Shown here: positions 26,405-53,184 of the stretch, in pieces
How the letters are laid out: each line of letters opens with the position of its first letter
How positions within the stretch are numbered: position 1 is the first letter of the stretch
From: Minisyncoccota bacterium
Lineage (GTDB): Bacteria; Patescibacteriota; Minisyncoccia; Phycocordibacterales; Phycocordibacteraceae
Length of the DNA: 64,000 bases
NCBI GenBank assembly: GCA_018062765.1
Contig: JAGORR010000001.1
Coordinates: forward strand, 217,249 to 281,248
Reading direction: 5' to 3'
The notes under the pieces: model-generated
Told to the model about the DNA's origin: nothing
The model's input: the letters and a program-made list of their open reading frames with translations, nothing else
Database searches by the model: none
Program-made: the position numbers and the translations under genes

Positions 26405-27091
26405 GTGATTATTCAATCAATGGCCCTGGGTAATATAACGAGTCAAGTAATCTCAAAACAACGTGTTTCCGACCATGGTGAGGTACTAACGGCTGAGCGA
26501 GAGGTAAACGCCATGCTCGACATGGTGCGCCATGAGACCGAACGCATTGACTCCCGTTTCCTCGAGCCAGCTTGCGGCACAGGCAATTTCCTAGCTCCAG
26601 TGTACGAAAAAAAGCTTGCCGTCATTAAAAAGCGCTACGGTAAAAGCCAGCTAGAGTTTGAACGCTACGCCGTTACAGGCACAGGCTCCATCTATGGAGT
26701 GGACATTCTTGAGGACAACATAAAACTCTGCCGCAAGCGCCTGTTCGACATCTTTAACGAGCTCTACACGGCGCTCTACAAGAAAAGAAGCAAGGATGCT
26801 GTCCGCAGTGCAGTCCGCTTTGTTCTCAACAGAAACATTTTGTGGGGTGATGCACTTTCTCTTAAAACGGTGTCAAAACAGCCGATGCCCATCGTGTTCT
26901 CCGAGTGGTCTATGGTACGCGGTAGCATGATGAAAAGGCGCGACTTCTCGTTTGAGGAGCTTATGCCCGACAGCGCGGCAAAAGTGAGCCTGTTCAAGCA
27001 AGCAGAAATATCCGATCTTGGGACACCAGCGTTCATACCGACCCCTGTAAAAGAGTACCCACTTACTCATTTCCTTTCACTACACGTATGA
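26405..27091 (+). CDS. Eco57I/gamma-class N6-adenine DNA methyltransferase homolog lacking catalytic motif IV (SAM-binding pseudo-methyltransferase?)
   Basis: Motif X-like HGEVLTAEREV and a canonical motif I FLEPACGTGNFL. The expected (D/N)PP(Y/F) position reads NRNILWGD. 228 aa; may start at the internal ATG at 26420. Confidence 0.55.
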   Translation: MIIQSMALGNITSQVISKQRVSDHGEVLTAEREVNAMLDMVRHETERIDSRFLEPACGTGNFLAPVYEKKLAVIKKRYGKSQLEFERYAVTGTGSIYGVDILEDNIKLCRKRLFDIFNELYTALYKKRSKDAVRSAVRFVLNRNILWGDALSLKTVSKQPMPIVFSEWSMVRGSMMKRRDFSFEELMPDSAAKVSLFKQAEISDLGTPAFIPTPVKEYPLTHFLSLHV

Positions 27092-28578: not shown

Positions 28579-28580
28579 CT

Positions 28581-31094
28581 ATGGCCGATTTTTTTCCGCC
28601 ACGGCCGGAGGCAAAGCCTACTATCTACGCCTACAAGCTCAAAGGTGTGGAAACGCATGCTCATCTCCTCAAGGTGGGCTACACGACGCGCGATGCGCAA
28701 AGCCGCATTGCCGAACAGCTCACCACCGCGCGTTTGCAATACGAAATTGTTTTTGAAGAACCGGCTATGCGTGCCGATGGTTCGACATTTACAGATACCG
28801 ACGTGCATCGCCACTTGCGCGGAAAGCGCATCACGAATCCGGAAGGAGAGTGGTTTGAGTGTGGAGTGAAAGACGTGCGAGCAGCGTACGTTGCCATACG
28901 AGAGGGTGTGTTCAACGAAGAAAACCGCACACAAACATTCGGAATGCGCCCAGAGCAAGCCGATGCTGTGGTAAAAACCGCCGCGTATTTTACCGAGGCG
29001 CATGCTGACGGCAAGCAAACACCGCATTTTTTATGGAATGCCAAAATGCGCTTCGGGAAAACATTCACCACGTACCAGCTCGCCAAAAAGATGGGATGGA
29101 GGAGGGTGTTAGTGCTCACCTTTAAGCCCGCCGTGCACAATTCCTGGCACGAGGATTTGATGAACCATGTAGATTTTGAGGGATGGCAGTTTGTCTCGCG
29201 ACGGGGGAATACGCTCAATCATGCTGACATTGATGAAAAGAAACCATTTGTCGTATTTGGTTCGTTCCAGGATTTTCTCGGAAAAAACAGCGCAGGCGGG
29301 ATAAAAGCAAAGAATGAGTGGGTACACGAGACAACATGGGATGCTGTCGTCTTTGATGAATACCACTATGGTGCGTGGCGCGAGAGCGCGAAGGATTTGT
29401 TTGTCGGTGAGGAAAAAGACGTACGCAAGGACGAAGAGGGTGAGGCGTTGGAGTACTTTGACGAGCGCGCAGTGCCGATAAAGACCGGCGCGTATCTCTA
29501 CCTTTCGGGTACCCCATTTCGGGCTATTGCGAGCGGAGAATTTATCGAAGAGCAGATTTTCAACTGGACGTACAGTGACGAACAGCGGGCAAAAGAAGAG
29601 TGGGACAGTGCGAAGGGACCCAACCCATATGCGTCGTTGCCACGGATGGTGATGCTCACCTATCAGTTACCTGATGCTATACGTGAAGTGGCGATGGGTG
29701 GGGAGTTCAATCAGTTTGATTTGAGCCAGTTTTTTGCTGCAGAAGGAAAGGGCAAGAGCGCGAAATTTTTGTATAAAGACGAAGTGCAAAAGTGGCTGGA
29801 TTTGATTCGCGGTGCGTTTGCTGAAACTACCGTAGACAATTTGAAGCTGGGAGCGAAGAAGCCTGCGTTGCCGTTTTCTGACACGCGGCTTTTGAATGTG
29901 CTATCGCACACGTTTTGGTTTTTGCCGAGTGTAGCGGCCTGTCATGCTATGGCGAATTTGCTCAAGCAACGACAGAACAAGTTTTTTAACGAGTACGAGG
30001 TGATTGTGGCAGCGGGTACGGCGGCGGGAATTGGCGTGGCGGCGCTTGAGCCTGTGCTGAGGAAGATGGGCGAGCCCTTGAAGACGCGCACAATTACGCT
30101 TTCGTGCGGCAAACTGACGACGGGTGTATCCGTGAAGCCATGGACAGGTATTTTTATGCTGCGCAATGTAGCGAGCCCCGAGACATATTTTCAGGCGGCT
30201 TTTCGCGTGCAGACACCGTGGACTGTGCCGAATCCGGAGGGCAACGCGCCAAATCGTGAAGAAATCATCAAGCAGGAATGCTATGTTTTCGATTTTGCTC
30301 CGGATCGCGCTTTGCGACAGATTGCCGAGTATAGTTCTAGACTCAATTTGGATGATTCGGTCAGTCCCGAGAAAAAGGTGGAGGAGTTTATTCACTTCTT
30401 GCCGGTCTTGGCCTATGACGGAAGCGCGATGAATCAGATAGACGCGGCGGGAATTTTGGATATGGCGATGAGCGGGACCACTGCCACGTTGCTTGCGCGG
30501 CGTTGGGAGAGTGCGCTTTTGGTGAATGTCGACAACTATACTCTGGCGCGCTTGATGAACAGTGATGAAGCGATGCAGGCATTGATGAGTATTGAAGGCT
30601 TTCGTGCTCTGAATCAAGATATTGAGACTATCATCAACAAGTCCGGTGTGGTGGAGAAACTGAAAAAAGAAGCGAACGATCGGACGTTGACGAAGAAAGA
30701 AACAGAGTCATTGAGCGACGCCGAAAAAGAATTGAAGGGCAAGCGTAAGCAGGTGCAGGAAAAGCTCATCAAATTTGCAACTCGCATTCCGGTGTTTATG
30801 TATCTCACCGACTACCGCGAGCATACTTTGAAGGACGTAATCAATGAGCTTGAGCCGGACTTGTTTAAACGCGTTACCGGTCTTACTAAAAAGGACTTCG
30901 AGCTCTTGGTGAGCTTAGGTGTATTCAACGATTCGTTGATGAACGACGCGGTTTACAAATTCCGTCGATATGAGGATGCGAGTTTGGCGTACACCGGCAT
31001 AAACAGGCACGAAGGGGAGAATGTTGGTCTTTTTAGCACAGTCCTTTCTGTAAAAGAATACGACCAAACATTCATAAATACTCCAGAAGAGTAG
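28581..31094 (+). CDS. GIY-YIG (T5orf172-like) nuclease domain fused to an SF2 (SNF2/ResIII-like) helicase
   Basis: N-terminus TIYAYKLKGVETHAHLLKVGYTTRD...EGEWFE. Helicase motifs: Q-like TFGMRPEQADAV, I NAKMRFGKTFT, II VVFDEYHYG, III LSGTPF, V LTTGVSV, VI QAAFRVQTP. 837 aa. Confidence 0.6.
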   Translation: MADFFPPRPEAKPTIYAYKLKGVETHAHLLKVGYTTRDAQSRIAEQLTTARLQYEIVFEEPAMRADGSTFTDTDVHRHLRGKRITNPEGEWFECGVKDVRAAYVAIREGVFNEENRTQTFGMRPEQADAVVKTAAYFTEAHADGKQTPHFLWNAKMRFGKTFTTYQLAKKMGWRRVLVLTFKPAVHNSWHEDLMNHVDFEGWQFVSRRGNTLNHADIDEKKPFVVFGSFQDFLGKNSAGGIKAKNEWVHETTWDAVVFDEYHYGAWRESAKDLFVGEEKDVRKDEEGEALEYFDERAVPIKTGAYLYLSGTPFRAIASGEFIEEQIFNWTYSDEQRAKEEWDSAKGPNPYASLPRMVMLTYQLPDAIREVAMGGEFNQFDLSQFFAAEGKGKSAKFLYKDEVQKWLDLIRGAFAETTVDNLKLGAKKPALPFSDTRLLNVLSHTFWFLPSVAACHAMANLLKQRQNKFFNEYEVIVAAGTAAGIGVAALEPVLRKMGEPLKTRTITLSCGKLTTGVSVKPWTGIFMLRNVASPETYFQAAFRVQTPWTVPNPEGNAPNREEIIKQECYVFDFAPDRALRQIAEYSSRLNLDDSVSPEKKVEEFIHFLPVLAYDGSAMNQIDAAGILDMAMSGTTATLLARRWESALLVNVDNYTLARLMNSDEAMQALMSIEGFRALNQDIETIINKSGVVEKLKKEANDRTLTKKETESLSDAEKELKGKRKQVQEKLIKFATRIPVFMYLTDYREHTLKDVINELEPDLFKRVTGLTKKDFELLVSLGVFNDSLMNDAVYKFRRYEDASLAYTGINRHEGENVGLFSTVLSVKEYDQTFINTPEE

Positions 31095-31103
31095 TAAAAA
31101 TCT

Positions 31104-31991
31104 ATGGCACTTTTTCAATCAAAAAACGATAAGGTTACACAGGTCGGTATAGACCTGTCGCAATTTAGAAACGAGGCTGCCCTACGAGATTTTTTTGCTG
31201 GAAATCTTGAGGAACTTTTAGGACTTCGATTTCTTGCGAATGAATACAGAACCACAGATGGGCGTATAGACACCTTGGCAATTGATGAGGTGGGTACTCC
31301 GGTAATAATTGAGTACAAATGGGATGAGAACGATGCTATTCTCCCGCAAGGCTTGTCCTACATGGCTTGGCTAAAAGACAATAAACGTTTATACGATTTG
31401 CTCGTATCAGATAGACTAGGGAAAGATATCAAAGTGTTTTGGGACATTCCGCGTCTCATTCTTGTAGCACAGCGCTTTGATCGTCGCACGCTCGCTGCCG
31501 CCGGAGAAGCGAAAAATAGTGTTGAACTCATTAAATATACACCTTACGACTCGGGCATATTACATCTTGAAACAGTTTACGGTTCTGAAAAAGTAAGAAC
31601 AGTTTCAGAAACAGTAGCTAAATTGTCATCAAAAGGTGTCAAATATTCTCTCGACCATCATTTAAATAGGGTAAACGAGGATGTTAAGCAGATGTTCTAC
31701 GCTCTTCAAGCAGAAATTCTTAAATGGACAAACGTAGACGAGAGGATCGATCAAAAAGTAGGGATAACGTATCGTACGACCAAGAGTTTCGTCCGTTTCG
31801 AGTTCGGTAAGAGCTATGTGAATGTTTTGGTACGAGACCCACGCTACGATCACAAAATTGACCCGAAAGGTCTATTGAAGGATGTGTCCTCGTTCGGCTG
31901 GGGTTATAAGGGGGTTGCTAAATTGAAATCGAAAGAGGATGTACAGGATGTTCTTGAGTTAGTGCGGGCATCGTACGAATCTACCCTATAA
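31104..31991 (+). CDS. PD-(D/E)xK (NucS/DUF91-like) nuclease domain plus a DUF5655-like C-terminal domain protein
   Basis: GRIDTLAIDEVGTPVIIEYKWDE fits a D...(E/D)xK core. C-terminal region resembles DUF5655. 295 aa. Confidence 0.45.
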   Translation: MALFQSKNDKVTQVGIDLSQFRNEAALRDFFAGNLEELLGLRFLANEYRTTDGRIDTLAIDEVGTPVIIEYKWDENDAILPQGLSYMAWLKDNKRLYDLLVSDRLGKDIKVFWDIPRLILVAQRFDRRTLAAAGEAKNSVELIKYTPYDSGILHLETVYGSEKVRTVSETVAKLSSKGVKYSLDHHLNRVNEDVKQMFYALQAEILKWTNVDERIDQKVGITYRTTKSFVRFEFGKSYVNVLVRDPRYDHKIDPKGLLKDVSSFGWGYKGVAKLKSKEDVQDVLELVRASYESTL

Positions 31992-32147: not shown

Positions 32148-33518
32148 ATGCAAGTGTCTGTCATTTTCCGCGCTCTTGGTGCTTTCATAGCGCTTTTGGG
32201 ACTTCTCCTTACCCCGTACTCCGCATTCGCCTCACTTAACGGCGATGCGGGCGTATACGCGGACGCTTCTGATCGCCGCGGGCTTTCTGTCTCAGCGTCT
32301 ACCGCCATCGATGGTCTTGGTACTAGCCCCGCATCTGTCGTACCCATGCCGATTCTTTTCGGCGTTTCGGTAGCGAATGTAAAGTCGGATTTCGGGGACC
32401 CGCGCGGCGGGGGAACGCGCACGCACGAGGGCCAGGACTTTATGGCACCTTCCGGGACGCCTATCGTCTCTCCAACTGATGCCGTAGTGCTTAAAACCGG
32501 CTCTGGTCCGACCTCAGGCAAGTACGTCTACACCGCAAACCCGGGCGGGGAGACCTTCGTTTACATGCACCTCTCCGAGATTGCGACTATCGCGGCCGGA
32601 CAGAAGCTTGAGGCGGGGGACGTCATCGGGTACGTAGGGGACACGGGGAACGCAAAGGGTGCTGGCGCGCACCTTCACTTTGAGATTCGTAAGAACCGCG
32701 TGCCGCAGGACCCGTACCCGCGCCTTGCCGACGAGTTTTCTATAGAAGAGAAAATGGAATTTCTCGCAGGTGTGTTTAAGGATTCGGACAACGACACGAG
32801 GCTCGCGGAGCTTCTGGTTGAGACGAGCCGAGGCGAGTTCCTACTAGCGAAGAAAGAGGGTATCGATATTCCAAGCTCGATAGAAGTCGCGCTTGGAGGT
32901 ACGCCAACCAAGAAAGTTGCGGAGGCTGACGATGAAGAGCTTTCGAATGCATCTTCCGTCACTACATCCGTTGGAACTTCTGACCTCGAGCTTGAGGACG
33001 AGGGCCCTGAAGTGGTTGCGATGCAGAAGCTTCTTATTGCGGCAGGAACGGGCCCTGCAGCTAAAGCGCTCGCGGAGGCGGGCGCGACCGGATTCTTTGG
33101 CCCGGCAACCGAGAAGGCACTCATCGAATACCAAAAGACTACAGGGATAAGTCCTGCAGCCGGGTACTTTGGAGCAAAGACGCGCGCAGCGCTTGCGCAT
33201 GGCGCGCCAGCAAAAGCCGCAACTGTCGCCGCTGCAACTCCATCTCCCAAGCCCGCAGCAGACGCATCTGTCGCGAGGGTACTTCCAAATGTTGACCTAG
33301 AAGCGGGTGCTTCCGGTTCCGAGGTGAAGGCTCTTCAGAACGTCATAATTTCGCTGGCAGCAGGAGAGAAAGCAGCGGCACTTAAGGAGGCGGGAGCGAC
33401 CGGATACTTCGGCCCTGCAACGCGCGAGGCACTTGTTGAGCTTCAGAAAGCGAGGGGTATCGCGCCAGCCACAGGGTACTTCGGCAGCCTGACCCGTAAT
33501 ACGCTCGCGGCAAAATAG
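32148..33518 (+). CDS. secreted M23/LytM-family metallopeptidase with two C-terminal peptidoglycan-binding (PG_binding_1) domains
   Basis: Signal peptide. HEGQDF...GDTGNAKGAGAHLHFEI (HxxxD / HxH). Two repeats of G.EV.A.Q..L...G.....G..GFFGPAT..AL..YQ. Confidence 0.85.
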   Translation: MQVSVIFRALGAFIALLGLLLTPYSAFASLNGDAGVYADASDRRGLSVSASTAIDGLGTSPASVVPMPILFGVSVANVKSDFGDPRGGGTRTHEGQDFMAPSGTPIVSPTDAVVLKTGSGPTSGKYVYTANPGGETFVYMHLSEIATIAAGQKLEAGDVIGYVGDTGNAKGAGAHLHFEIRKNRVPQDPYPRLADEFSIEEKMEFLAGVFKDSDNDTRLAELLVETSRGEFLLAKKEGIDIPSSIEVALGGTPTKKVAEADDEELSNASSVTTSVGTSDLELEDEGPEVVAMQKLLIAAGTGPAAKALAEAGATGFFGPATEKALIEYQKTTGISPAAGYFGAKTRAALAHGAPAKAATVAAATPSPKPAADASVARVLPNVDLEAGASGSEVKALQNVIISLAAGEKAAALKEAGATGYFGPATREALVELQKARGIAPATGYFGSLTRNTLAAK

Positions 33519-38949: not shown

Positions 38950-41900
38950 ATGACTCATATTACTTTCGCTTCGCGATCGGCTATCGCCCGATTCGCAAGC
39001 GCGCTCACGGTGTTCGCGCTCGTCGCGACACCGTTCATGACTCTTATTCCTGCATCGGCGCATGCGACCGCGCCGACACCAGCAAGCATTTCGATTGATA
39101 CTGTCGAAGATGATAATGGCTCATATACTTCGCCTTTTGATTTCTCATGCCCTGTAGATGGTAATGAAGGAGAAATAACCATCTACGGTAGCGGAGCGAG
39201 CGCAAGCAACTCCCCGGGGCAGATTGAAGACTATGCCGTTGCAATAGATTGGGGAGATGGGAGCGCAACAACCACAGATCTTGGCACGTTCACTCCTCCT
39301 TCAGGGACGTCTACGTTCACGTACGAATTCACAGCTTCCCATTCGTATTCCTCCTACGGACCAAAAACTGTCACTGCATACCTTTACCATGGAAGCCTAA
39401 ATGGAAACGATGGTGATGCTGTGGCGACAATCACTTTATCTCCTTGCAGCACCGATCCGGGTGTGACCACCGACGCTGCAGACAACATCAGCCACACGGA
39501 CGCTACTATGCACGGTACCAACGGGCCTGTAGCAGCGACAAACTCCTCGTACTGGGTCTCCCTTGCGCCGATTGATACCGGCTCGTCCTCCATTCCGCCA
39601 GGCGTCTACTCAACCCCGACTCAGGGAGCGGTAGCTGCTAATGGCGCCCTTGCCGGGACGCCCCTTTCTTCTGTCGCGACTTCCGGCATCCCAGGAAACA
39701 TCCCAGGCGGTATACAACCAGATACCACGTACTACTTCGTTGCGTGGATCGAAGTCGGCGGAGACTGGTATCCGGGCGAAGTCCTCTCTGTCACGACCCT
39801 CCCTGATCCTGAAGTACCGCCGGCCTGCGGAATCATGGATAACACCACGTTCGACGGATTCTCTCTCGGCAGCGTAAACGGCCAGGGCGGATGGGGTATA
39901 ACCGGTCCCTACGACCACGCTATCGTCGATAACACCTACGGCTTCCCAACTTTCGGTTGTAAGACGCTTCGTATCTCGAACGCCGTAACCGCTGGTTCGT
40001 TCGGTGACCAAATCTTCTCCTACTCAGTCGCCAACGAGGCAGGTGAGACTGTTGCTGAGAATAACGGCATGTCAGGGGGTACTCGCCAGGAGCGCTTCGA
40101 GGCAGAGTTCGATATCGCCTCCGCTGATGCAGACGTTTACCAGCCGGGCCTCGCTGTCACTGTCTCTCCCGACCGGGGTGATGGCGCTCGCATGAGCTAT
40201 CTTCGCTTCGAGGATTCCCCGGACGGTATCGATGTCTATTTCTACGACGTGCAGAGCTCGACTGATCCTGCGAACTTCGTCCAGACCCAGATCGCAAATG
40301 ATCTTCCGCGCACCTCGCCGCACACGGTGAAGCTCGTCATGGATTTCGTTGACGGCCCGGTAAGTCCGGCAGCGCTCCCTGCGAACGATGTCGTCGAAGT
40401 CTTCATCGACGGCGTCTCCGAGCATATCGGGACAAGCTGGGAAAACTATTACCGCTACGATAATGAGTCGAACCCTGGCCTTATCGACACGAGCCGCACC
40501 GTCGACTCGCTCCTCTTCCGTGTCGCTGGCACGGCTGCTCCGGAAACGGATGAGGAGGGCTTCCTCTTCGACAATGTCTCCATAGAGACCGGCCCTACAC
40601 CAGGCCCTGTCGTAGAGACCTCGACCGTGACCCTCTGTAAGTACGCAGACACGTACCCCGAGGAGACTCCACTCCCAGGATGGACGCTCACTCTTACCGG
40701 CGACACCGTACAGGAAAGTTTCGCCGTCCCTGTTGCAGACCCTGTAGGTGTTAACTCAAATCCTCTCGTAGCCGGAGTTTCCTACGTGGCAACGGCGATG
40801 GGTACTTGGCTCAATGACCGGCCAGATGATGCGCCTGAAGGAAACGATGTCGACGCTGAGTACTCGACGATCGACGAGTGGGTAACCCAGATGGACGGCT
40901 ACGACGGATTCGGTACCAATATCCTTGAGCTCGAGATCAATGAGACCGATGGCGAGTGGGGTACATACAACAGCAGCCATACGTACGCACAGGCCTTCAC
41001 CGTTGCTGCTGACGGCCCTGCGAACTTCCGGATCTTCGATGGCGACGGTGCGCATGTTCAGCAGCCAAGCTGGTTTGCCGACAACAAAGACAGCACGCTC
41101 GAAGTAGAGATCTCCGAAGGATATGCCGGCGTAACTGGAGAGAACGGCTGCGTAACGTTCGAAGATGTGCCATTCGGTAGCTACGAAGTAGGCGAGGTCA
41201 TGCAGGACGGCTGGGAGAACGAATCCGGACTTGGCGAGGTAACGGTGGATGAGGAGGAAATGGTCTTCGATGTCGTCAATCATAACGACGACTTCGGCAA
41301 TGATTCCTGCATGCTCGTAAGCGACACAACGACCCTCGAGGGTGGTACTGCTTCCGACCTCGTGCCGGAGCCGCATCATGAATCATGGACCGCCGTAGTA
41401 GACATGCTCGCGATGTGGATCTGGGGAGATGAGGAAGTCACTGATCCGACTGGTGAGGAGACTCAGGTCTTCACGAAGACGTTCTGGCTTGAGTCCGTAC
41501 CAGCGTCTGACGCGACCCTGGTCATCGGAGCCGATAACTCGTACGAAGTCGAACTCAATGGCACTCCAGTGGGTAACGATGCCAACGAGGACAACTACAC
41601 TAACGCTGAAAAGGACACGATTACGATTCCTATGGCGGACTTCGAGCTCGGTGCGAACACGCTCGTCTTCACGGTGAAGAACATCGCGTTTGGCGGCGGC
41701 ACGCAGGAGACGAATCCGGCCGGACTCATCTACAAGCTCACTATCCCAGGAACGGAGTGTCAGCAGACGCCTCCTGACCAGGCGGAGCTACAGGTCCACA
41801 TCTACAAGTACATCCAGGATGAGAACGATGCTATAGCGCTCGCAACCGAGGGAAGCTTCCCAATGAGCGCGACCTGGGACGCTGCCAACATCGGCGCGGG

Positions 41901-43257
41901 CTCCGGCAACTACGCGCTTAACGCGGGGAACAGCTATCACGCTGCAACGAGCCCGATGTCACAGCAGGCCGACTACAGCACCTACGAAGTCACGGATGGA
42001 AATCCTGTCATGCCTGCGGACAGTAATAGCTGTCCGGCGGATAAGTACCGACTCGTAGGCTACAAGACCGGAGATACGCTCATCGAAGCTGAGAACGACG
42101 CAATAGACGACGACTTCCCGGTCTTCGATAGTCTCGACGCTGATAAGTATGTAATCGTAGTCAACGAAGATTGTGATGACCTTGATATCCCACCTACCGA
42201 GCAGGTGAAGGTTCACATCTACAAGTACCTCGAGGATGAAAACGATGTAGCGACGCAGATTCCTGACAATGCGGAGATAGCGCCGTTTGCGATGACGGCG
42301 ACATGGACCGCAGATAACCTAAATAGCGGGACCGAGTCTTCCGGTGAGTATGTCCTCGGTAACAATCACGGCGGAACATCGCTTACGTACGCTGCGGATA
42401 CATCACCGATGGATGTCGGCGCTGATTACACGACTTCGGAGATTACCGGCGAGAACGGTGTCCTTCCGGTTGGTGGTGAGTGCGTTGAGGGTGCGTATCG
42501 CCTCGTGGGCTACAAGTCGGGCACGACCCTTGAAGAGGCAGAAGGCGGCGTCGTAACAGCAGCCGCACCAATCTTCACCGACCTCCAAACTGACCAGCAC
42601 GTTATCGTCGTCAACGAGGACTGCGATGACGTATTCGACGACAGTACTCCATCCGAAGAGCAGTTCACTATCACCTCGACGGTTGAAGGAGATGGAACGG
42701 TGACCCCGTTAGGCGCAATCGTCGTTAATGAGGGTGACAATCAGATGTTCACTTTTACTGACGGTGGCCAGTCGCTCGTCGAAGTTCTGATAGACGGCGT
42801 CGATATCGGAAGTCCTGCTGATTACACCTTCTCCAGTGTTAACGCGAACCATACGGTGCACGCACGATTCGCAACGAATGGAGGTGGCGGTGGTGGAGGA
42901 GGCGGAAACAATAACGGTGGTCAGGTTCTCGGTGCATCCACCGACGACATGTGCATCCCGCTCCTCCATACGTATATGCGCATGGGTATAGTGAACGACG
43001 CACAAGAGGTTATGGACCTTAAGGGCTTCCTTAACGAGGAAATGGGACTGACGCTTCCGATTGACTCGAACTTCGACGCAGCGACGGATGCTGCGGTGCG
43101 TGCATTCCAGACGAAGTACAAGACCGAAGTGCTTGATCCGTGGACACCGTTTGGCTTCAATGATCAGCCGACCGGCTACGTGTTCAAGCTGACCCAGTGG
43201 AAGGTAAACTCAATCCACTGTGCTCCAACGATTTATCCGTTCCCAGCGCTCCCATAA
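38950..43257 (+). CDS. giant (1435 aa) secreted cell-surface protein with tandem ~130-aa domain repeats, poly-Gly linker and C-terminal peptidoglycan-binding domain
   Basis: Signal peptide. Internal duplicated module (VHIYKY[IL][QE]DENDA...YRLVGYK[TS]G.TL.EAE...HVIVVNEDCDD, twice). GGGGGGGGGNNNGG linker. C-terminal PG_binding_1-like domain (AVRAFQTKY). Confidence 0.8.
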   Translation: MTHITFASRSAIARFASALTVFALVATPFMTLIPASAHATAPTPASISIDTVEDDNGSYTSPFDFSCPVDGNEGEITIYGSGASASNSPGQIEDYAVAIDWGDGSATTTDLGTFTPPSGTSTFTYEFTASHSYSSYGPKTVTAYLYHGSLNGNDGDAVATITLSPCSTDPGVTTDAADNISHTDATMHGTNGPVAATNSSYWVSLAPIDTGSSSIPPGVYSTPTQGAVAANGALAGTPLSSVATSGIPGNIPGGIQPDTTYYFVAWIEVGGDWYPGEVLSVTTLPDPEVPPACGIMDNTTFDGFSLGSVNGQGGWGITGPYDHAIVDNTYGFPTFGCKTLRISNAVTAGSFGDQIFSYSVANEAGETVAENNGMSGGTRQERFEAEFDIASADADVYQPGLAVTVSPDRGDGARMSYLRFEDSPDGIDVYFYDVQSSTDPANFVQTQIANDLPRTSPHTVKLVMDFVDGPVSPAALPANDVVEVFIDGVSEHIGTSWENYYRYDNESNPGLIDTSRTVDSLLFRVAGTAAPETDEEGFLFDNVSIETGPTPGPVVETSTVTLCKYADTYPEETPLPGWTLTLTGDTVQESFAVPVADPVGVNSNPLVAGVSYVATAMGTWLNDRPDDAPEGNDVDAEYSTIDEWVTQMDGYDGFGTNILELEINETDGEWGTYNSSHTYAQAFTVAADGPANFRIFDGDGAHVQQPSWFADNKDSTLEVEISEGYAGVTGENGCVTFEDVPFGSYEVGEVMQDGWENESGLGEVTVDEEEMVFDVVNHNDDFGNDSCMLVSDTTTLEGGTASDLVPEPHHESWTAVVDMLAMWIWGDEEVTDPTGEETQVFTKTFWLESVPASDATLVIGADNSYEVELNGTPVGNDANEDNYTNAEKDTITIPMADFELGANTLVFTVKNIAFGGGTQETNPAGLIYKLTIPGTECQQTPPDQAELQVHIYKYIQDENDAIALATEGSFPMSATWDAANIGAGSGNYALNAGNSYHAATSPMSQQADYSTYEVTDGNPVMPADSNSCPADKYRLVGYKTGDTLIEAENDAIDDDFPVFDSLDADKYVIVVNEDCDDLDIPPTEQVKVHIYKYLEDENDVATQIPDNAEIAPFAMTATWTADNLNSGTESSGEYVLGNNHGGTSLTYAADTSPMDVGADYTTSEITGENGVLPVGGECVEGAYRLVGYKSGTTLEEAEGGVVTAAAPIFTDLQTDQHVIVVNEDCDDVFDDSTPSEEQFTITSTVEGDGTVTPLGAIVVNEGDNQMFTFTDGGQSLVEVLIDGVDIGSPADYTFSSVNANHTVHARFATNGGGGGGGGGNNNGGQVLGASTDDMCIPLLHTYMRMGIVNDAQEVMDLKGFLNEEMGLTLPIDSNFDAATDAAVRAFQTKYKTEVLDPWTPFGFNDQPTGYVFKLTQWKVNSIHCAPTIYPFPALP

Positions 43258-43275
43258 AGACCTAGCGTCTTAGCA

Positions 43276-43303
43276 AAAAGCCCGCCCACAAGGCGGGCTT
43301 TTT
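43276..43303 (+). terminator. rho-independent terminator
   Basis: AAAAGCCCGCC-cacaa-GGCGGGCTTTTT. Confidence 0.55.
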
Positions 43304-43332: not shown

Positions 43333-44382
43333 ATGGCGAAGAAGGTCTTAAAACGAGTAGCGCCGCCGCGTGTCAGGAAGCGGCGGAAGCACGGTGTGAC
43401 GCTGTGGCTTTATGACCACTTCGTCCCGCACGCTGGGAACGGACATGAGCCCCACTACTTCCGCACGGGTTCCCTTATCGCGCTCGCACTCGGGGTCCTT
43501 ATGCTCCAGGGCCTTTATCTGGGAGCGACTAAGTTCGTATTCCTCCAGACGAATTTCCTCGCATCCGTCCTTCCTGGCGTCCTCGTCTCCTTAGCAAATG
43601 AGGACCGTGCCGAGAATGGGGTAGGAGCGCTTGAGGAGGACCCTGAGCTTTCTGCAGCAGCGCAGGTGAAGGCGAATGATATGGCAGCACGCGGGTACTT
43701 CTCCCACGCAACCCCTGAGGGGCAGCCGCCCTGGTACTGGTTCCGGCTTGCCGGATACGAGTATGCGCACGCGGGAGAGAACCTTGCGGTGAATTTCACC
43801 GATTCGATAGATGTGCAGGAAGCGTGGATGGAGTCCCCGACCCATCGTGCGAACATAGTGAAGCCTGTGTATACGAAGGTCGGGATAGGTGTCGCCGAAG
43901 GCACTTTTGAGGGGAAGCGGGCGACGTTTGTCGTGCAATTTTTTGCGACGCCACCGGCGGCGCCTATACCCGCGCCAGCCGAAAGTCGGCTTGCGGTCAC
44001 GGTCGCGGAGCCTGTTCCTGAAACGGAGCCTGTTGTCGCATCCGCGCCACCTGCTGCGACTGAAGTCCTGGGAACGGAGGCAGCTACGCCTGCGCCGACT
44101 ACGCGTCAGACGACTAGCTTCTGGCAGAAGTTTATGACCGAGATTACGAGCCCGACTGCGCTCCTTGTCTCAGCACTTACCGGATTCCTCTCGCTCACCA
44201 TCGTCGCCTTGCTTGCCATTATGCTCGTGCACTTCCGTATCCCACACCCGCGCGTCGTTCTGGGGAGTGCGGCGCTCACCGTCCTCTTCCTCGTAGCGCT
44301 CTACATGAACGCCTCGGCTATCATCCCGGTCACGCTGCCTGAGGACGCAGGGGTTGCTAACGCGATATCCGCGACTAGATAG
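43333..44382 (+). CDS. membrane-anchored CAP/SCP/PR-1-like domain protein
   Basis: GYFSH..P.G, GENLA, WMESPTHRANI, KVGIGV CAP signatures. N-terminal and C-terminal TM helices. Confidence 0.75.
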   Translation: MAKKVLKRVAPPRVRKRRKHGVTLWLYDHFVPHAGNGHEPHYFRTGSLIALALGVLMLQGLYLGATKFVFLQTNFLASVLPGVLVSLANEDRAENGVGALEEDPELSAAAQVKANDMAARGYFSHATPEGQPPWYWFRLAGYEYAHAGENLAVNFTDSIDVQEAWMESPTHRANIVKPVYTKVGIGVAEGTFEGKRATFVVQFFATPPAAPIPAPAESRLAVTVAEPVPETEPVVASAPPAATEVLGTEAATPAPTTRQTTSFWQKFMTEITSPTALLVSALTGFLSLTIVALLAIMLVHFRIPHPRVVLGSAALTVLFLVALYMNASAIIPVTLPEDAGVANAISATR

Positions 44383-47793: not shown

Positions 47794-47831
47794 CCCCATC
47801 CACACCAGGGGAACACTACTTGCGTGCTACG

Positions 47832-49391
47832 ATGATATTCATGAAGATTTCATCGAAAATCTTCGGCGTTCTTGCTACCCGGGTGTTCGCAGGAATATTC
47901 ATCGCAGGCATTGCCGGCGTGCTTTTCTTCGGTAATTTCTTTACCACACGAGGTCCGGTCGAGGCATCCGCCGACACGTACTACCCAACGTTCTGTCTTG
48001 GCGGCTGGGAGAATCCGAAGCTCGCAAGTGAGAAGCCAGCGATAAATCCTAAGGATCTCGGTGCCTTTACGCCAGAGAACTCCGCATTCCTTGCGGATGA
48101 TATTTCCGCACAGATATTTTGCGGATACTTTCCCGTCGTTGGGCGCGACAAACTCCCCATGTCTGCGCGCGTGTCGTTCAACTGGCTGCTTGTTGGCGAG
48201 CCGATTGCGCCTGTTGTTGAGGAAGCTCCGGCAGAGGAGGCTCCGATAGAGAGCGGTGAAGGAGAGGTGCTTGGCGAGGAAACTCAAACTGGTGATACTC
48301 CCGCTGACGTACCGGAGCCCGCACCAGACACCACACCCGCGCCGTCTGATACCACTCCGACTGAGTCGGAGTCACCTGCGCCAGCGTCCGACGCGCCCTC
48401 TGGTGACACAGGCGAAAGTTCTGGTGGAGAATCGTCGAGTGAGTCTGGCGGAGATAGTGGCGGAGGTGATTCTGGTGCCGGAGACTCGGGCGGAGGAGAT
48501 GGAGGAGGCGATTCCGGTGGCGGCGATAGTGGCGGTGATGCTGGCGGCGGGGACTCGGGGGGAGGGGACTCGTCTGCGTCCAGTGTTTTCGATGAGCTTG
48601 CGTCGCTCGTACGCTCGCGCGCGAGCGCCGCGTTTGCGGAAGACGCCCCATCGATTGGTAACGATCTGCTCGATGTGAGCTACAGCTTCGATGGCGTGCG
48701 GTGGCAGTCTGCGGGGCGGGTCGGCAGGGATAACTGGCGCGATTTCAGCATACTCATTCCTGCGACCTCGTGGCAGGAACTTCAGAACCTACAGGTCATG
48801 GTTTCCGCGCTTCCGACCCTCGATACGCGCCCGGCGATTTACCTCGAGTCGATGATGCTGCGTGTCTCGGTGGATCGTACTTTTGCGGAGCTTGCTACCG
48901 ACAGTTTTGCGGCAGTGGGAGATGTCGTCGAAGGACTTTTCACTCTGCCTGCGCCCGTAGCTGCTGTAGTCGAGGCACCCGTCTATCAAGCGCCACCAGC
49001 TAAAGAGAAAAAGCTTTCATTCCGAGTTGCCGGAAGTCCGCTCGATACGCTCGGGAAGAACTTGCCCGCACCAAATGTTTCTGCGAGCGGCGACGGACTT
49101 AGCCTTACCGTTTCCGGGAAGTGCAGTATGCCGTACTTTGTGGTGCTGACCTACCGTAGTCGAGAAGATTTCGAGAAGCGTCCGCGCCAGTTCGCCTCTA
49201 ATTATGCGGGCCCTTGTAAGGGTGGGTCGTTTACGTACGACATGGAGCACCTTCCGACTGATACCCCGGAGGACGTGTACTACCTTGTTGTGGGCGAGCA
49301 GAGCGACACAGAGCCATGGCGGGCAACCACCGAGCTCGTGCCGGTCGAGGTGCGTACGGTAGAGATAACGCCAGGGTCCCTCGACGAGTAG
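47832..49391 (+). CDS. membrane-anchored surface protein with a (G/D/S)-rich low-complexity tract
   Basis: TM anchor. GGDSGGGDSGAGDSGGGDGGGDSGGGDSGGDAGGGDSGGGDS repeat tract. No known domain. Confidence 0.45.
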   Translation: MIFMKISSKIFGVLATRVFAGIFIAGIAGVLFFGNFFTTRGPVEASADTYYPTFCLGGWENPKLASEKPAINPKDLGAFTPENSAFLADDISAQIFCGYFPVVGRDKLPMSARVSFNWLLVGEPIAPVVEEAPAEEAPIESGEGEVLGEETQTGDTPADVPEPAPDTTPAPSDTTPTESESPAPASDAPSGDTGESSGGESSSESGGDSGGGDSGAGDSGGGDGGGDSGGGDSGGDAGGGDSGGGDSSASSVFDELASLVRSRASAAFAEDAPSIGNDLLDVSYSFDGVRWQSAGRVGRDNWRDFSILIPATSWQELQNLQVMVSALPTLDTRPAIYLESMMLRVSVDRTFAELATDSFAAVGDVVEGLFTLPAPVAAVVEAPVYQAPPAKEKKLSFRVAGSPLDTLGKNLPAPNVSASGDGLSLTVSGKCSMPYFVVLTYRSREDFEKRPRQFASNYAGPCKGGSFTYDMEHLPTDTPEDVYYLVVGEQSDTEPWRATTELVPVEVRTVEITPGSLDE

Positions 49392-49392
49392 T

Positions 49393-50016
49393 ATGGCAAT
49401 AGTTGCGCGCATACTCGAGAACACGACTGCCGTCGCCGTAGCGGCGCAGCCGCCCTTAAAGACACCGGAGCCGACGGCCGTATTCGCGCTATTTGCTCCT
49501 GAGGAGCAGTCAGGTGCGCGTTTTTTTGACGACACTGCGCTTGGGGTACGCTCCTTCACTCTTCCTGCGTTGGACCTCCGACTTATCTTCGAGCCTACGC
49601 GCGTCAGGCTCGAGGCAACCGCGCCTAAGCCGGTCGATGTGCTTCCGTTGGGTACACGCCTAGCAAATGTCGTCGCGGCCATATATCCCAATGTTCCGTT
49701 TCTTCGCTATGGATTCAACTACGACCGCACGTTCCAATACGACGCCGTCATCCCACAGCGCCACATCATGGAGGCGTTCATGGACGCGGAGGCCGTGAAT
49801 GCGATGACGCATTTTGGCTGGCAGTGCACCTTGCAGAAAGAGAAGGGTAAGCGGAAGGAAACCTACTTCTTCAAGGTCGTCTCGCCGCTTGAGATACGAA
49901 TCCTCGCGAATATCGAGTTCGATCGGGTACTTCCAGAAGCAGGCAAGTGCCAGACAGAGTTCGCGCAGTGCGCGGATGACGCGATGCATATCGTCGAACG
50001 TCTCCGTTTTTCCTAA
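49393..50016 (+). CDS. hypothetical protein
   Basis: 207 aa, translationally coupled to its neighbours. Confidence 0.4.
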   Translation: MAIVARILENTTAVAVAAQPPLKTPEPTAVFALFAPEEQSGARFFDDTALGVRSFTLPALDLRLIFEPTRVRLEATAPKPVDVLPLGTRLANVVAAIYPNVPFLRYGFNYDRTFQYDAVIPQRHIMEAFMDAEAVNAMTHFGWQCTLQKEKGKRKETYFFKVVSPLEIRILANIEFDRVLPEAGKCQTEFAQCADDAMHIVERLRFS

Positions 50017-50017
50017 C

Positions 50018-51484
50018 ATGACCGTAACCCGCAACGGCGTACGACTTACGAGGCGGAGCAAGCGCTGGTGGCGGCTTGCGTTCATACTTGCTGCCGAGGG
50101 TGTGCTTTCCGCGTTCGTCTACATGTCCTTGGCGGCGCATATCCTCTGGCCAGAAGACTCTAAAGCTGCCACCGGCGTCTCCGCGATGCTCTCCTATGAG
50201 GGAAGGCTTATGGACGCGTCGGGGAACCCGCTTGGCGGCACCGGCACCCCATACTGCTTCCGCTACTCCATATACGACGCAGCCTCGGGTGGCACGAAGC
50301 TCTGGCCCGCAGGCACCCCTAATACATCGCTCGCCACTTCTACCGACGGCGTGTTCTCGTCCCTCATTGGCCAGGCGGATGCGCTTACCTATAACTTTTT
50401 TGATAGCGATACTGTCTACCTCAACGTCGATGTGTACACGGTGGCAGCGTCTGGAGGCACCTGCTCGGGCGGTTCGTGGGAGAGTCTCACGCCCCGTCAG
50501 CAGATTGCCTCAACCGGCTACGCGCAGACCGCAAAAAACACCTACGGCGGCTCGATACAGGTGGGTGACGGCGCCGGCGTAACGCTCAATTATCTTGCGC
50601 TCGACGTGAAGAATACGGACGACTACATCGGTCAGTCCTGCACCACAAGCGGCACCGTGTGGTACAACTCCGCGATATCAAAGACACTCGTCTGCGAGAA
50701 CTCGGTCATACAGGCGATTTCGAATGCGTCTGCGACGACGACGATTGCGGGCATCACAACGAACACTGCCGCTGCAGCATCTACCGGTACCATCGTTTTC
50801 AGTAACGCAAACGGCGTTACCTTCGGCATCAACGGACAGACCATCACTGCTTCTGTTGCCGCCGCTGGCGGCGGCATCACCTACAGCGGATATGCACCTG
50901 ATCATTTGGGTAAGGAGCTCGTCGCGGGTCAACAGGGACAAGGGACCTTCTTTGTTCAGCCGATGTGGAACGCTCCCTCGTTCCAGTTCGATAGACTCGT
51001 TTTGCCCATCAACTTCTCCAACACCTCAAACCTTTCGGGAAGCGGCACCGTCTCGTTCTGGATTGGCATTTACAGCAGAAACGTATCGTCGCTTTCGCTC
51101 GTGATGAGCACTTCCATATCAACGAACGTCACGATGTCTGGGACGGTCGGTAGCTATTCGCTCTACGCTGGACCGAGAAACCTTGCTATTCCATGGACGA
51201 GCACCGTATCCGGAAGCGACTACTGGATTGGCATCGGCTCTCGTACGACCACGGGCGGCGCCGCGATGTCGATCTCACAATTCCTGGCTTCACAACCGAA
51301 CTCAAACTATTCGGGAAATTTCGGTTCAGCGAACAATGCCACCAAAGGAATGATTATGGGACAAGGTTTCTATAGTGCTACGACATCAGCAGTCCCGGCT
51401 TCGATCGCCTTCACGCAAATCAATGGAACGGGTTCGCTCAATAGGCGCCCCCCAGTGTATTACTTCATGAGCGGTACGATATGA
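50018..51484 (+). CDS. membrane-anchored Ser/Thr/Gly-rich surface protein, hypothetical
   Basis: Internal ATG one nt after the upstream stop. N-terminal TM. Long S/T/G/N-rich beta-rich region. Confidence 0.45.
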   Translation: MTVTRNGVRLTRRSKRWWRLAFILAAEGVLSAFVYMSLAAHILWPEDSKAATGVSAMLSYEGRLMDASGNPLGGTGTPYCFRYSIYDAASGGTKLWPAGTPNTSLATSTDGVFSSLIGQADALTYNFFDSDTVYLNVDVYTVAASGGTCSGGSWESLTPRQQIASTGYAQTAKNTYGGSIQVGDGAGVTLNYLALDVKNTDDYIGQSCTTSGTVWYNSAISKTLVCENSVIQAISNASATTTIAGITTNTAAAASTGTIVFSNANGVTFGINGQTITASVAAAGGGITYSGYAPDHLGKELVAGQQGQGTFFVQPMWNAPSFQFDRLVLPINFSNTSNLSGSGTVSFWIGIYSRNVSSLSLVMSTSISTNVTMSGTVGSYSLYAGPRNLAIPWTSTVSGSDYWIGIGSRTTTGGAAMSISQFLASQPNSNYSGNFGSANNATKGMIMGQGFYSATTSAVPASIAFTQINGTGSLNRRPPVYYFMSGTI

Positions 51485-52209
51485 AATCGGGCGTTATTTT
51501 TGAGAACCTCAATCTGGGTCTGCATAACGCAGACTTGGAGGCGACGGTCGCGCGTCTTGAGCAGGGGAAGTCGTACCGCGACCTTTCCACCATTATCATC
51601 TGTCCGACTCGCGGCATGATACCGGACCGTGTGGTCCAGAGTTGGATGGGGCTTATACGCCCCATGAATCAGAAGGTCATCGGCCCCATCTTCTTTCGCG
51701 GGTATGAAGTTGGGGAAGCGTACACGATGGCAATCGATTTCGTTCTTTCGAATCCAGAGCTTTCCACTTGGAAATACATACTGACGATAGAGGAGGATAA
51801 CCTCCCGCCGCCTGATGGGCTTCTGAAGCTCTATGAGAGCATGGACACGTATGATGTCGTCGGTGGCCTCTACTGGACCAAGGGCGAGGGAGGGCAGCCC
51901 ATGATCTACGGCGACCCAAAGGTTGCGCCCTTAAACTTCATTCCCCAGAAGCCAGTTGCCGATACCGTGCAACCTGCAAACGGACTTGGCATGGGCTTCA
52001 ATCTGTTCAAAATCGAGATGTTCAAGGATGAGCGTCTGCGCAAGCCCTGGTTCAAGACCCTACAGGGCGTAGTGCCTGGCGAAGGACCCAAGCTCTATAC
52101 GCAGGATTTGTATTTTTTCGAGGATGCAGGCAAACTCGGGTACAAGTTCGCCTGCGACACGCGCGTCAAGGTCGGGCACCTAGACCCATCAACCGACGTA
52201 ATCTGGTAG
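51481..52209 (+). CDS. putative GT-A-fold glycosyltransferase
   Basis: ICPTRG...YILTIEEDN (DxD-like)...QDLYFFEDA pattern resembling the GT2 family; tentative. Confidence 0.35.
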   Translation: MKSGVIFENLNLGLHNADLEATVARLEQGKSYRDLSTIIICPTRGMIPDRVVQSWMGLIRPMNQKVIGPIFFRGYEVGEAYTMAIDFVLSNPELSTWKYILTIEEDNLPPPDGLLKLYESMDTYDVVGGLYWTKGEGGQPMIYGDPKVAPLNFIPQKPVADTVQPANGLGMGFNLFKIEMFKDERLRKPWFKTLQGVVPGEGPKLYTQDLYFFEDAGKLGYKFACDTRVKVGHLDPSTDVIW

Positions 52210-52218
52210 CTGGCACCC

Positions 52219-53184
52219 ATGAAATACTTCATTTTCGTCCTTAGTTTGCTCCTCATCGGCGGAGCCGGCTGGTATTTCGGGAGCGTTTCGAACGTTGCCG
52301 AGGGTATCCGAGCTTCAGTAGTGCAGGATGATTCAAGTCTTACGTCTGGCAACTACCCACTCATCAATGAGACGGTTACCTCCGGCCTCGGGAAGCACTA
52401 CATCATCAATATGCAGCCGCTCAGGGAAAGGTTGGTTGCGATAGCGGAGGAGTATAGCTACAAGAAGCATGTCTATTTCGCCTACCTGAATAACGACTCC
52501 TGGATTGGTATCAACGAGCGCGAGTACTTCACTGCCGCATCGACCATCAAGGTGCCGCTTGCGATGAGTATTATGCACGCGGTCGAGGAGCGAAAAATAT
52601 CTCTTGATGATACGTACACCGTACAGAGCGAGGATTTGGATGATAACTTCGGTGAGCTCTACAAGACTGCTGAGGGTAAGACATTCACGATACGGGAGCT
52701 GATGAAGATTACGCTCGAGGAGTCCGATAACACAGCCTCGTCCGCTCTCTTCCATGCACTTCAGGAAATTGGCATCCAAGATCCATTTTCAAATGTGTAC
52801 ACATTCATGGGATGGGACAACTATCCCGGTGTTGGAGAGTCGCCAGAATACTTCGATGTCAATCTTAAGATTCTCTCGAACATGTTTCTCGCGCTCTACA
52901 ACGCAAAGTATGTCGATGTCGATTCATCACAGGAGATTCTCGACTATCTCGATAACGAGAATTTCAATGAGCAGATAGTGGCCGGCGTCCCGGACGGGAT
53001 CCCTGTCGCGCACAAAAGCGGCGTACAGACAGAATCAGACTCGTATTCAGATTGCGGAATCGTATATGCTCCGAACCGTCACTACCTGCTCTGCATAGGC
53101 TCCGAGGGCGCACCAAAACCAGTGGCAGATGCATTCATGAAGGAAATTTCTAAAACGGTGTACGATTACATCATCAATAACTAG
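52219..53184 (+). CDS. class A beta-lactamase-family serine hydrolase, membrane-anchored
   Basis: S-x-x-K (ASTIKV), SDN (ESDNTAS), KSG (HKSGV) motifs; N-terminal TM. Confidence 0.75.
   Translation: MKYFIFVLSLLLIGGAGWYFGSVSNVAEGIRASVVQDDSSLTSGNYPLINETVTSGLGKHYIINMQPLRERLVAIAEEYSYKKHVYFAYLNNDSWIGINEREYFTAASTIKVPLAMSIMHAVEERKISLDDTYTVQSEDLDDNFGELYKTAEGKTFTIRELMKITLEESDNTASSALFHALQEIGIQDPFSNVYTFMGWDNYPGVGESPEYFDVNLKILSNMFLALYNAKYVDVDSSQEILDYLDNENFNEQIVAGVPDGIPVAHKSGVQTESDSYSDCGIVYAPNRHYLLCIGSEGAPKPVADAFMKEISKTVYDYIINN

Follow-up and report, generated by a model that had tools for sequence, protein, structure and literature searches.

A Patescibacteria surface protein with lectin-type modules, predicted CnaB-like stalk domains and a putative wall-docking C-terminus

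The gene and its product

The window, a 64,000-nt stretch of contig JAGORR010000001.1 from a Minisyncoccota bacterium (positions 217,249 to 281,248 of the forward strand), carries a complete gene for a secreted modular surface protein of 1435 amino acids (aa), KBC38_01410, at window positions 38950..43257 on the + strand, which is also the strand of all its modules described below. The open reading frame (ORF) runs from ATG to stop, and its product has the same sequence as the NCBI entry 'MAG: hypothetical protein KBC38_01410 [Candidatus Pacebacteria bacterium]' (P0001, on a 637,994-bp contig), whose organism label NCBI taxonomy assigns to the phylum Minisyncoccota, in the Patescibacteria or Candidate Phyla Radiation (CPR) lineage. 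One homolog (P0002) is collinear with the protein across 99% of its length at 69% identity, and the same module order is found in two others (P0004 and P0005). A fusion of two genes, or a frameshift artefact, which the original prediction from the sequence alone had named as one of the findings that would overturn it, is ruled out by these collinear full-length orthologs. The same prediction of a secreted, modular surface protein is borne out by the signal peptide and the module map.

The signal peptide occupies aa 1–39 (38950..39066), as read from sequence and hydropathy. It has a basic n-region with Arg9 and Arg14, a single hydrophobic stretch at about aa 11–37 and an A-H-A/T cleavage-type site at aa 39/40, whose AxA pattern is also kept in P0002 and P0004. 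Hydropathy reveals no further hydrophobic segment anywhere in the 1435-aa protein. From these features we infer that the protein is exported by the Sec pathway and its signal peptide cleaved. The composition is rich in Thr (10.4%), Gly (9.9%), Ala (9.0%) and Asp (8.9%) and extremely acidic, with 15.3% Asp plus Glu against 2.8% Lys plus Arg. There are 14 cysteines, exactly two each in the modules designated N, C, D, E, F1, F2 and H, and those in D, F and H vary little or not at all within their families; two cysteines per module fits independently folding, disulfide-bonded extracellular domains. Scanned as a whole, the protein matches no NCBIfam family.

Coverage of the protein by its 119 listed homologs is very uneven. 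Iterated hidden Markov model (HMM) searches over these homologs defined seven reusable modules, and the remaining region, module N, is bounded by homolog coverage alone. Counted among 120 listed proteins, the query included, module C is the hallmark of the whole family (118 proteins), followed by F (58, usually in two copies), H (36), B (33), E (21) and D (13). Homologs combine the modules in freely shuffled order and number, with arrangements such as FCEDEF..H, CFFF and E..FFCH. No paralogous modules were found elsewhere in the 64-kb window.

A tandem pair of CnaB-like modules

Near the C-terminal end of the modular region lie two copies of module F: F1 at aa 941–1080 (41770..42189), with a predicted Lys/Glu/Asn triad of K953, E1013 and N1072 and the disulfide pair C1028/C1075, delineated by its identity to F2 and by the family alignment, and F2 at aa 1081–1232 (42190..42645), with the predicted triad K1092, E1164 and N1222 and the disulfide pair C1178/C1225. 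In BLASTP, these 135–146-aa modules align (aa 940–1078 against aa 1079–1258) with 47% identity over 150 columns and E=2e-38, a similarity far above chance. The tandem duplication that had been read from the sequence is thus real. Tandem Repeats Finder detects no DNA-level tandem repeat at F1/F2, and the duplication is visible in the protein only.

An alignment of 48 diverse F copies, with a mean column identity of 41%, has three invariant polar positions (numbered within the F2 segment): K10 in the first-strand motif VxIxKY, E82, and N140 in the last-strand motif VIVxNxxC. C96, C143, F31, G105, Y106, A115 and V138 are invariant as well. The AlphaFold2 model of F has a predicted local distance difference test score (pLDDT) of 96.9 and a predicted template modelling score (pTM) of 0.91, and it is a transthyretin/prealbumin-like Greek-key beta sandwich in which K10 lies within strand 6–13, E82 at the end of strand 77–82 and N140 within the last strand, 134–142. 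Foldseek places this model closest to T-antigens (E=9.5e-5), followed by Cpa, Spy0128 and PitB; the probability of these matches is 1.0.

CnaB-like isopeptide domains have been defined as transthyretin-like sandwiches with a Lys–Asn or Lys–Asp bond that joins the first strand to the neighbouring last one, a catalytic Glu and, often, a disulfide alongside (PMC12617251). Judged from its alignment and model, module F fits this definition in all of its sequence and fold criteria, and we infer that F1 and F2 form autocatalytic isopeptide bonds, predicted to involve the two triads given above. The repeats had originally been described as Ig-like adhesion modules. Their repetition stands, and the generic Ig-like label gives way to a CnaB/transthyretin-like stalk fold with a Lys/Glu/Asn triad and a disulfide; structure prediction, which had been proposed as a check on the repeat, returns this stalk fold and not a generic Ig adhesion domain. 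Module F is probably mechanical, not adhesive.

The F family is small and sharply delimited: a search of 1.84 billion cluster representatives with its profile yields 497 proteins at E≤1e-3, and 472 of these reach E≤1e-10. Among 398 unique F domains taken from 198 proteins, the triad is K/E/N in 381 and K/E/D, which corresponds to the known Lys–Asp variant, in 3; it is lost as a whole in 3, carries a single substitution in 1 and has an alignment gap at one or more of its positions in 10. Conservation by position is 386/398 for Lys, 393/398 for Glu and 394/398 for Asn or Asp, and the cysteine pair is present in 392/398 domains. Three joint losses against one single loss is what a triad whose residues depend on one another in function would be expected to show.

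The pair is old. F1 is 71–79% identical to the first copy in P0002–P0005, and F2 is 58–81% identical to the second copy in the same proteins; 25 domains of other proteins are nearer to F1, and 47 nearer to F2, than the sister copy is at 48%. Relatives hold a separate ortholog of each copy, which shows that the pair was inherited, and these copy-specific orthologs rule out a recent expansion of the module. Variation in repeat number, which had been suggested as something to look for, does occur among relatives: across the 198 proteins, F is present once in 27, twice in 144, three times in 26 (the homolog P0003 likewise has three copies) and five times in 1.

A third candidate isopeptide domain

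Module D (aa 549–782; 40594..41295) appears to be a SpaA/CnaB-type domain split by an insert of ~140 aa, with Cys563/Cys734 and a putative triad of K564, E749 and N777. Taken alone, it marginally passes the SpaA threshold (PF17802, 23.4 bits against a cutoff of 23.1), and its profile matches the Bacillus cereus pilin BcpA (3kpt, E=1.1e-7). The invariant E749 aligns with the Glu of the BcpA 'YxIxE' motif, and K564 in the first-strand motif and N777 in the last-strand motif are conserved in the D family. We regard D as a putative third isopeptide domain.

The insert itself (~aa 585–725, ~40700–41125) has a set of invariant residues of its own, including D635, A636, W670, G671, H677, Y679, F693, D697 and N712. 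It has no detectable relative in Pfam or PDB sequence searches, and in the homolog P0041 it occurs without SpaA flanks.

Lectin-type modules

Module C (aa 287–548; 39808..40593), with the motif 'SPDRGDGxRMSY' and Cys293/Cys337, is modelled with a pLDDT of 90 as a curved two-sheet jelly roll of the concanavalin A (ConA)-like lectin/glucanase kind. Sequence and profile searches against Pfam and the PDB, at E up to 1–10, returned no relative and no glycoside hydrolase (GH) or polysaccharide lyase (PL) family. Its near-invariant charged residues include E366, D408, R409, D411, R414, H458, K461, D480 and E498.

A census of species-representative genomes found C encoded in 361 of those scanned. Among the best 80 of these 361 loci, to which our lineage reading applies, most are labelled Patescibacteria, ~20 Chloroflexota (Anaerolineae, Chloroflexia, Limnocylindria, Thermomicrobiales and Caldilineaceae) and a few otherwise. 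In the Chloroflexota proteins, C stands at the N-terminus or alone. Identity of the module across Patescibacteria, Chloroflexota and the few other phyla is 47–67%. Such cross-phylum conservation of a module that has no Pfam family points to horizontal spread or to tight constraint on its ligand or activity.

The other modules are distributed more narrowly. Within the same best 80 loci, F, D, E and B occur solely in Patescibacteria-labelled records, and H occurs in such records and in two with uninformative titles (L030 and L074). The named F-containing proteins among the listed homologs all come from Patescibacteria lineages, and we provisionally take F to be restricted to this group. Module C is also found as stand-alone proteins of ~300–360 aa; the loci noted for its cross-phylum or stand-alone occurrence are L029, L031, L032, L040, L041, L051, L055, L057–L059, L064, L069, L077 and L082.

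Module E (aa 783–940; 41296..41769; Cys787/Cys937) is a lectin module of the CBM67-like/rhamnosidase-N type, assigned from PDB profile matches. Its profile matches the fungal lectins 6t1d, 6t0q and 6kbj at E≈2e-16 (6t1d, 2.2e-16) and the Streptomyces avermitilis rhamnosidase 3w5m at residues 134–231 (E=5.7e-15), a segment that we take to be the rhamnose-binding CBM67 of that enzyme. Single members of the E family weakly match Bac_rhamnosid_N and Glyco_hydro_2_N. The original prediction, in assigning adhesion to the repeats, passed over C (ConA-like) and E (CBM67-like), which are the likely binding modules.

The C-terminal wall-docking region

A flexible linker of composition G9N3G2 (aa 1311–1324; 42880..42921), the poly-Gly hinge already recognized in the sequence, leads into the C-terminal region; homologs have Gly/Ser/Asn-rich linkers of variable length at the same place. 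Directly behind it lie the pre-anchor motif 'QVLGAST' (aa 1325–1331; 42922..42942), in which V-L-G is invariant across the H family alignment, and, starting at the same residue, module H (aa 1325–1435; 42922..43254). We assign H as a divergent PG_binding_1-type domain and putative non-covalent wall-docking domain. The variant is distinguished by the invariant V-L-G in front, an insertion 'KYxxxVLxPW', an invariant cysteine pair (Cys1335/Cys1424) and a PxPxLP end.

As an isolated segment (aa 1322–1435), H matches PF01471 with 28.3 bits and E=2e-6, and PF01471 is matched by all 27 of 27 homologous H segments (best E=8.5e-11). The H profile finds peptidoglycan-binding domains in the PDB (5tv7, 7rum, 4xxt and 1lbu, at E≈1e-4) and picks up, weakly, the two canonical PG_binding_1 domains in the M23 peptidase encoded in the window. 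The proposed relation of the C-terminus to PG_binding_1 therefore holds at family level, and the PDB matches are indeed peptidoglycan-binding domains.

The protein ends in ...CAPTIYPFPALP, which has no LPXTG motif followed by a hydrophobic segment and a basic tail. Sequence reading and hydropathy reveal no LPXTG signal, transmembrane (TM) anchor or lipobox in the 1435-aa protein, and NCBIfam contains no sorting-signal model that matches the C-terminal tails. A reading of the protein as a pilin is ruled out by the missing sortase signal. With neither an LPXTG signal nor a TM anchor, H is the only candidate retention device, and of the claim that the protein is 'wall-anchored' what is left is a predicted docking that would be non-covalent at most. 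Relatives have canonical PG_binding_1 domains or TM/LPXTG-like tails where this protein has H.

The pattern 'x-V-L-G-[A/E/T]-[S/T]' recurs in low-complexity linkers just before C-terminal anchors and is sometimes duplicated. The anchors behind it are the H-type variant, canonical PG_binding_1 domains or TM/LPXTG-like tails. Instances in the window are QVLGAST at 42922–42942, EVLGTEA at 44062 in a CAP-domain protein and GEVLGEE at 48264 in the ORF at 47820..49391; homologs with the motif include P0006, P0010, P0013, P0036, P0075 and P0085. In 260 proteins, 184 of 310 VLG motifs lie at most 260 aa from the C-terminus, where 24% would be expected given the lengths of the sequences. The motif matches no sorting-signal model in NCBIfam and has no counterpart in the literature searched; it may be a signal for processing, sorting or glycosylation.

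A wall-docked lectin adhesin and its alternatives

Considering these features together, we think it probable that the protein is a lectin adhesin docked in the wall, its stalk braced by cross-links and its layout that of Gram-positive fibrillar adhesins; cross-linking, glycan binding and wall binding are predictions. In such a protein, H would dock the exported chain non-covalently in peptidoglycan, most simply that of the producer's own wall, and the poly-Gly linker would act as a hinge giving reach and flexibility. The wall-proximal F1 and F2, and D further out, would each be locked autocatalytically by a Lys–Asn isopeptide bond and additionally by one disulfide, and this bracing would protect the stalk against pulling force and proteases. 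The distal lectin modules C and E, and perhaps the insert of D, would bind glycans of a partner cell or surface.

This reading agrees with published observations. CPR genomes are rich in surface proteins with lectin, ConA or FN3 domains (PMC5220378), and parasitic Paceibacteria highly express extracellular proteins with peptidoglycan-binding, Ig-like or galactose-binding domains (PMC10936435). A link to episymbiosis is plausible for this phylum.

Several observations weigh against the adhesin interpretation or parts of it. The 48 F copies, searched by hmmscan at E up to 1 against the 11 CnaB-like Pfam families of the isopeptide survey (PMC12617251), gave no significant or recurrent hit; the best matches were DUF5979 (E=0.003) and SpaA (E=0.16), in one copy each. 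A PDB profile search with F likewise found no match below E=0.3. As there is no significant Pfam family match, the CnaB assignment of F rests on fold and residue pattern. AlphaFold2 models carry no cross-links. Module C, at 50–67% identity across phyla, is unusually conserved for the tip of an adhesin. Within the whole protein, H scores 22.6 bits against PF01471, which is 0.4 below the 23-bit cutoff, and BLASTP finds no similarity between H and the canonical PG_binding_1 domains of the M23 protein, a sign of how divergent H is.

The conservation of C bears on an enzymatic alternative, namely a wall-associated polysaccharide-degrading protein in which C would be catalytic (of GH16, PL7, PL14 or PL20 type) and the other modules would serve as carbohydrate-binding modules (CBMs) or spacers in glycan harvest or remodelling. 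Very strong conservation across phyla and many near-invariant charged residues speak for it, as do the stand-alone proteins of ~300–360 aa, which fit an enzyme or a specific binder better than a variable tip, and CBM-type modules like E usually accompany enzymes. We nevertheless regard this explanation as unlikely, given that C has no GH or PL match in Pfam or in PDB sequences even at E up to 1–10 and no catalytic motif was identified in it. The same conservation would suit a conserved self ligand and so an S-layer-like envelope protein, forming or decorating an outer protein layer, whose lectin-like modules bind the cell's own wall glycopolymers. The very acidic, Thr/Gly-rich composition, the many beta-sandwich modules and the wall-binding-type C-terminus would agree with this. 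However, heavily shuffled architectures with many optional modules are typical of adhesin repertoires and not of lattice proteins, and whole-protein Pfam and NCBIfam scans returned no SLH or similar family, making an S-layer role highly improbable.

A further alternative is a host-directed tether. Here H would bind the peptidoglycan of a host, and the protein, released or held otherwise, would bridge symbiont and host or deliver the CAP protein encoded next to it. The variant features of H (insertion, disulfide and PxPxLP end) could reflect a different ligand, the adjacency to the CAP gene is conserved, and the extracellular proteins with peptidoglycan-binding domains that Paceibacteria parasites highly express have been proposed to function in host attachment (PMC10936435). 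This would leave the protein, which lacks a TM segment, LPXTG signal and lipobox, with no retention device once H is given to the host; moreover, canonical PG_binding_1 domains or TM anchors at the position of H in relatives argue for self-anchoring, and the giant gene and the CAP gene have a terminator-like hairpin between them. We consider host tethering improbable on these grounds and continue with the own-wall-docked adhesin.

Relation to known systems

Surface adhesins with CnaB-type cross-linked stalk domains are a known kind of protein. In layout, KBC38_01410 resembles fibrillar adhesins and microbial surface components recognizing adhesive matrix molecules (Cna, SdrD and the Mobiluncus mulieris protein 5u6f, in which a disulfide and an isopeptide bond occur together) and Periscope proteins with lectin heads (Aap/SasG). 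These have in common a signal peptide, distal ligand-binding modules, a cross-link-stabilized beta-sandwich stalk and a C-terminal wall anchor. The present protein differs in having a PG_binding_1-type non-covalent anchor behind poly-Gly instead of an LPXTG/sortase signal, three stalk domains instead of long arrays, and lectin modules of ConA-like and CBM67-like type.

Compared with Spy0128 and T-antigens of Streptococcus pyogenes, PitB (FctA, PF12892) and Cpa (DUF5979), module F shares the fold at a sequence identity of 8–19%, and the Pfam families FctA and DUF5979 do not detect it significantly. Unlike these pilins, the F-bearing protein has no LPXTG motif and is not sortase-polymerized; F has a conserved disulfide and comes from Patescibacteria. 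The triad spacing of F, 72/58 residues, resembles the 74/56 of SpaA_2 (PF19403), and disulfides are common in SpaA_2, SpaA_3 and SpaA_4 (PMC12617251), but F gives no match to SpaA_2 at E up to 1. Module D is closer to described domains: it passes the cutoff of SpaA-type/BcpA CNA domains (PF17802) with the catalytic-type Glu aligned, and differs in its ~140-aa insert.

The profile homology of H to PG_binding_1 domains of wall hydrolases and endolysins (1lbu, 7rum, 5tv7 and 4xxt) extends over helices 1–2 and the 'TG..Y..T' end. In contrast to those domains, H sits on a non-enzymatic giant protein and has the insertion, cysteine pair, V-L-G and PxPxLP end described above. Module E matches the CBM67 of 3w5m and the tandem-CBM67-like fungal lectins (6kbj and 6t1d) over ~95 residues, and it is not attached to a glycosidase. 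The extracellular proteins of archaea-parasitizing Paceibacteria (Kuroda et al. 2024, PMC10936435), likened here by description, share the lineage, the kinds of domain and the proposed attachment role; isopeptide domains and the C and F modules are not mentioned there.

Against this background, F would be an unannotated CnaB-like family outside the 26 Pfam isopeptide families, as its sequence and model suggest, and the occurrence of such isopeptide domains in Patescibacteria is a new prediction. The text of the 2025 isopeptide survey, which drew on the AlphaFold database with an upper length limit of 1280 aa, does not mention the phylum Patescibacteria (PMC12617251), and our literature search found no report connecting isopeptide domains with Patescibacteria or CPR. 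The ConA-like module C is new as a widespread module without a Pfam family, and a putative PG_binding_1-type anchor in place of sortase anchoring would be new as well. The most far-reaching formulation combines all of this: F and D as the first self-cross-linking stalk domains in Patescibacteria/CPR, F as a lineage-restricted family, the protein as an own-wall-docked lectin adhesin for a host or surface, and the VLG pre-anchor as a CPR-wide and possibly new processing or sorting signal. We put this full combination forward tentatively and consider it less likely than not.

CPR surface proteins are mostly labelled 'hypothetical', and how ultra-small CPR bacteria hold their partner cells is little understood. 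The locus offers a concrete adhesin candidate with defined lectin and putative wall-docking modules. Module F is compact (~140 aa), confidently modelled, has 96% triad conservation and was missed by the Pfam families of the survey. Both C and F are widespread and lack a Pfam family, and defining such families would help to annotate metagenomic proteins in the hundreds. CnaB domains that ligate themselves can also serve as starting material for Catcher/Tag tools.

Other modules and genomic neighbourhood

Three further modules complete the protein, none of them with a significant Pfam family match. Module N (aa 40–167; 39067..39450), delimited by the coverage profile and the cysteine map (Cys67/Cys166), is beta-rich, has a PKD-like 'AIDWGDGS' motif and is confined to the closest relatives among the listed proteins. 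Module B (aa 168–286; 39451..39807), recognized by HMM iteration and conservation, is a conserved beta module that looks FN3-like by eye only and is present in 33/120 listed proteins with 1–3 copies each. Module G (aa 1233–1306; 42646..42867), also from HMM iteration, is a small beta module without cysteines found in 7/120 listed proteins; its best Pfam match, to PapC_C, is weak (E=0.004).

Downstream of the giant gene, at 43333..44382 on the + strand, lies the gene of the CAP/YkwD-domain protein (Pfam CAP, E=1.8e-18; TIGR02909), a product with C-terminal TM segments and a motif of its own, 'EVLGTEA'. Within the 75 bp that separate the two genes is an intrinsic-terminator-like hairpin, A5-GCCCGCC-CACAA-GGCGGGC-T5, read from the sequence at 43275..43303 (a scan places the stem at 43284–43298). 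This hairpin, lying with its T5 tract between the genes, makes co-transcription of the giant gene and the CAP gene doubtful. With its symmetric A5-stem-loop-T5 arrangement, it could terminate transcription in both directions. Promoter-like sites do not exceed the shuffled expectation.

The gene order cupin, giant protein, CAP and DAO oxidoreductase, with a small ORF before the last of these in L002, is kept in two related loci (L001 and L002). Of the two neighbours named originally, the CAP-domain gene is thus adjacent and remains so in two relatives; the M23 gene is not a neighbour. That gene, for an M23 peptidase with two PG_binding_1 domains, lies at 32148..33518, 5.4 kb upstream of the giant gene, with PAP2, GIY-YIG, EamA and cupin genes in between. 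An operon with the M23 lysin is ruled out by this distance and the unrelated intervening genes.

Further features of the window lie on either side. Genes for a restriction-modification methylase of Eco57I type, a helicase-like T5orf172/ResIII protein and a DUF5655 protein lie in the region 27088–31991, whose GC content is lower (0.46–0.48, against ~0.55 elsewhere); this block was probably acquired horizontally as a defence island. Downstream of the CAP gene are four sizeable ORFs without a Pfam family (47820–49391, 49814–51484, 51481–52209 and 54703–56070), the first of which has a long acidic Pro/Ser/Gly-rich low-complexity region together with its VLG motif. These four may encode further surface proteins. 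Among them, at 52219–53184, lies the gene of a class-A beta-lactamase/DD-peptidase-like protein, and this product and the M23 peptidase indicate active peptidoglycan metabolism in a small genome.

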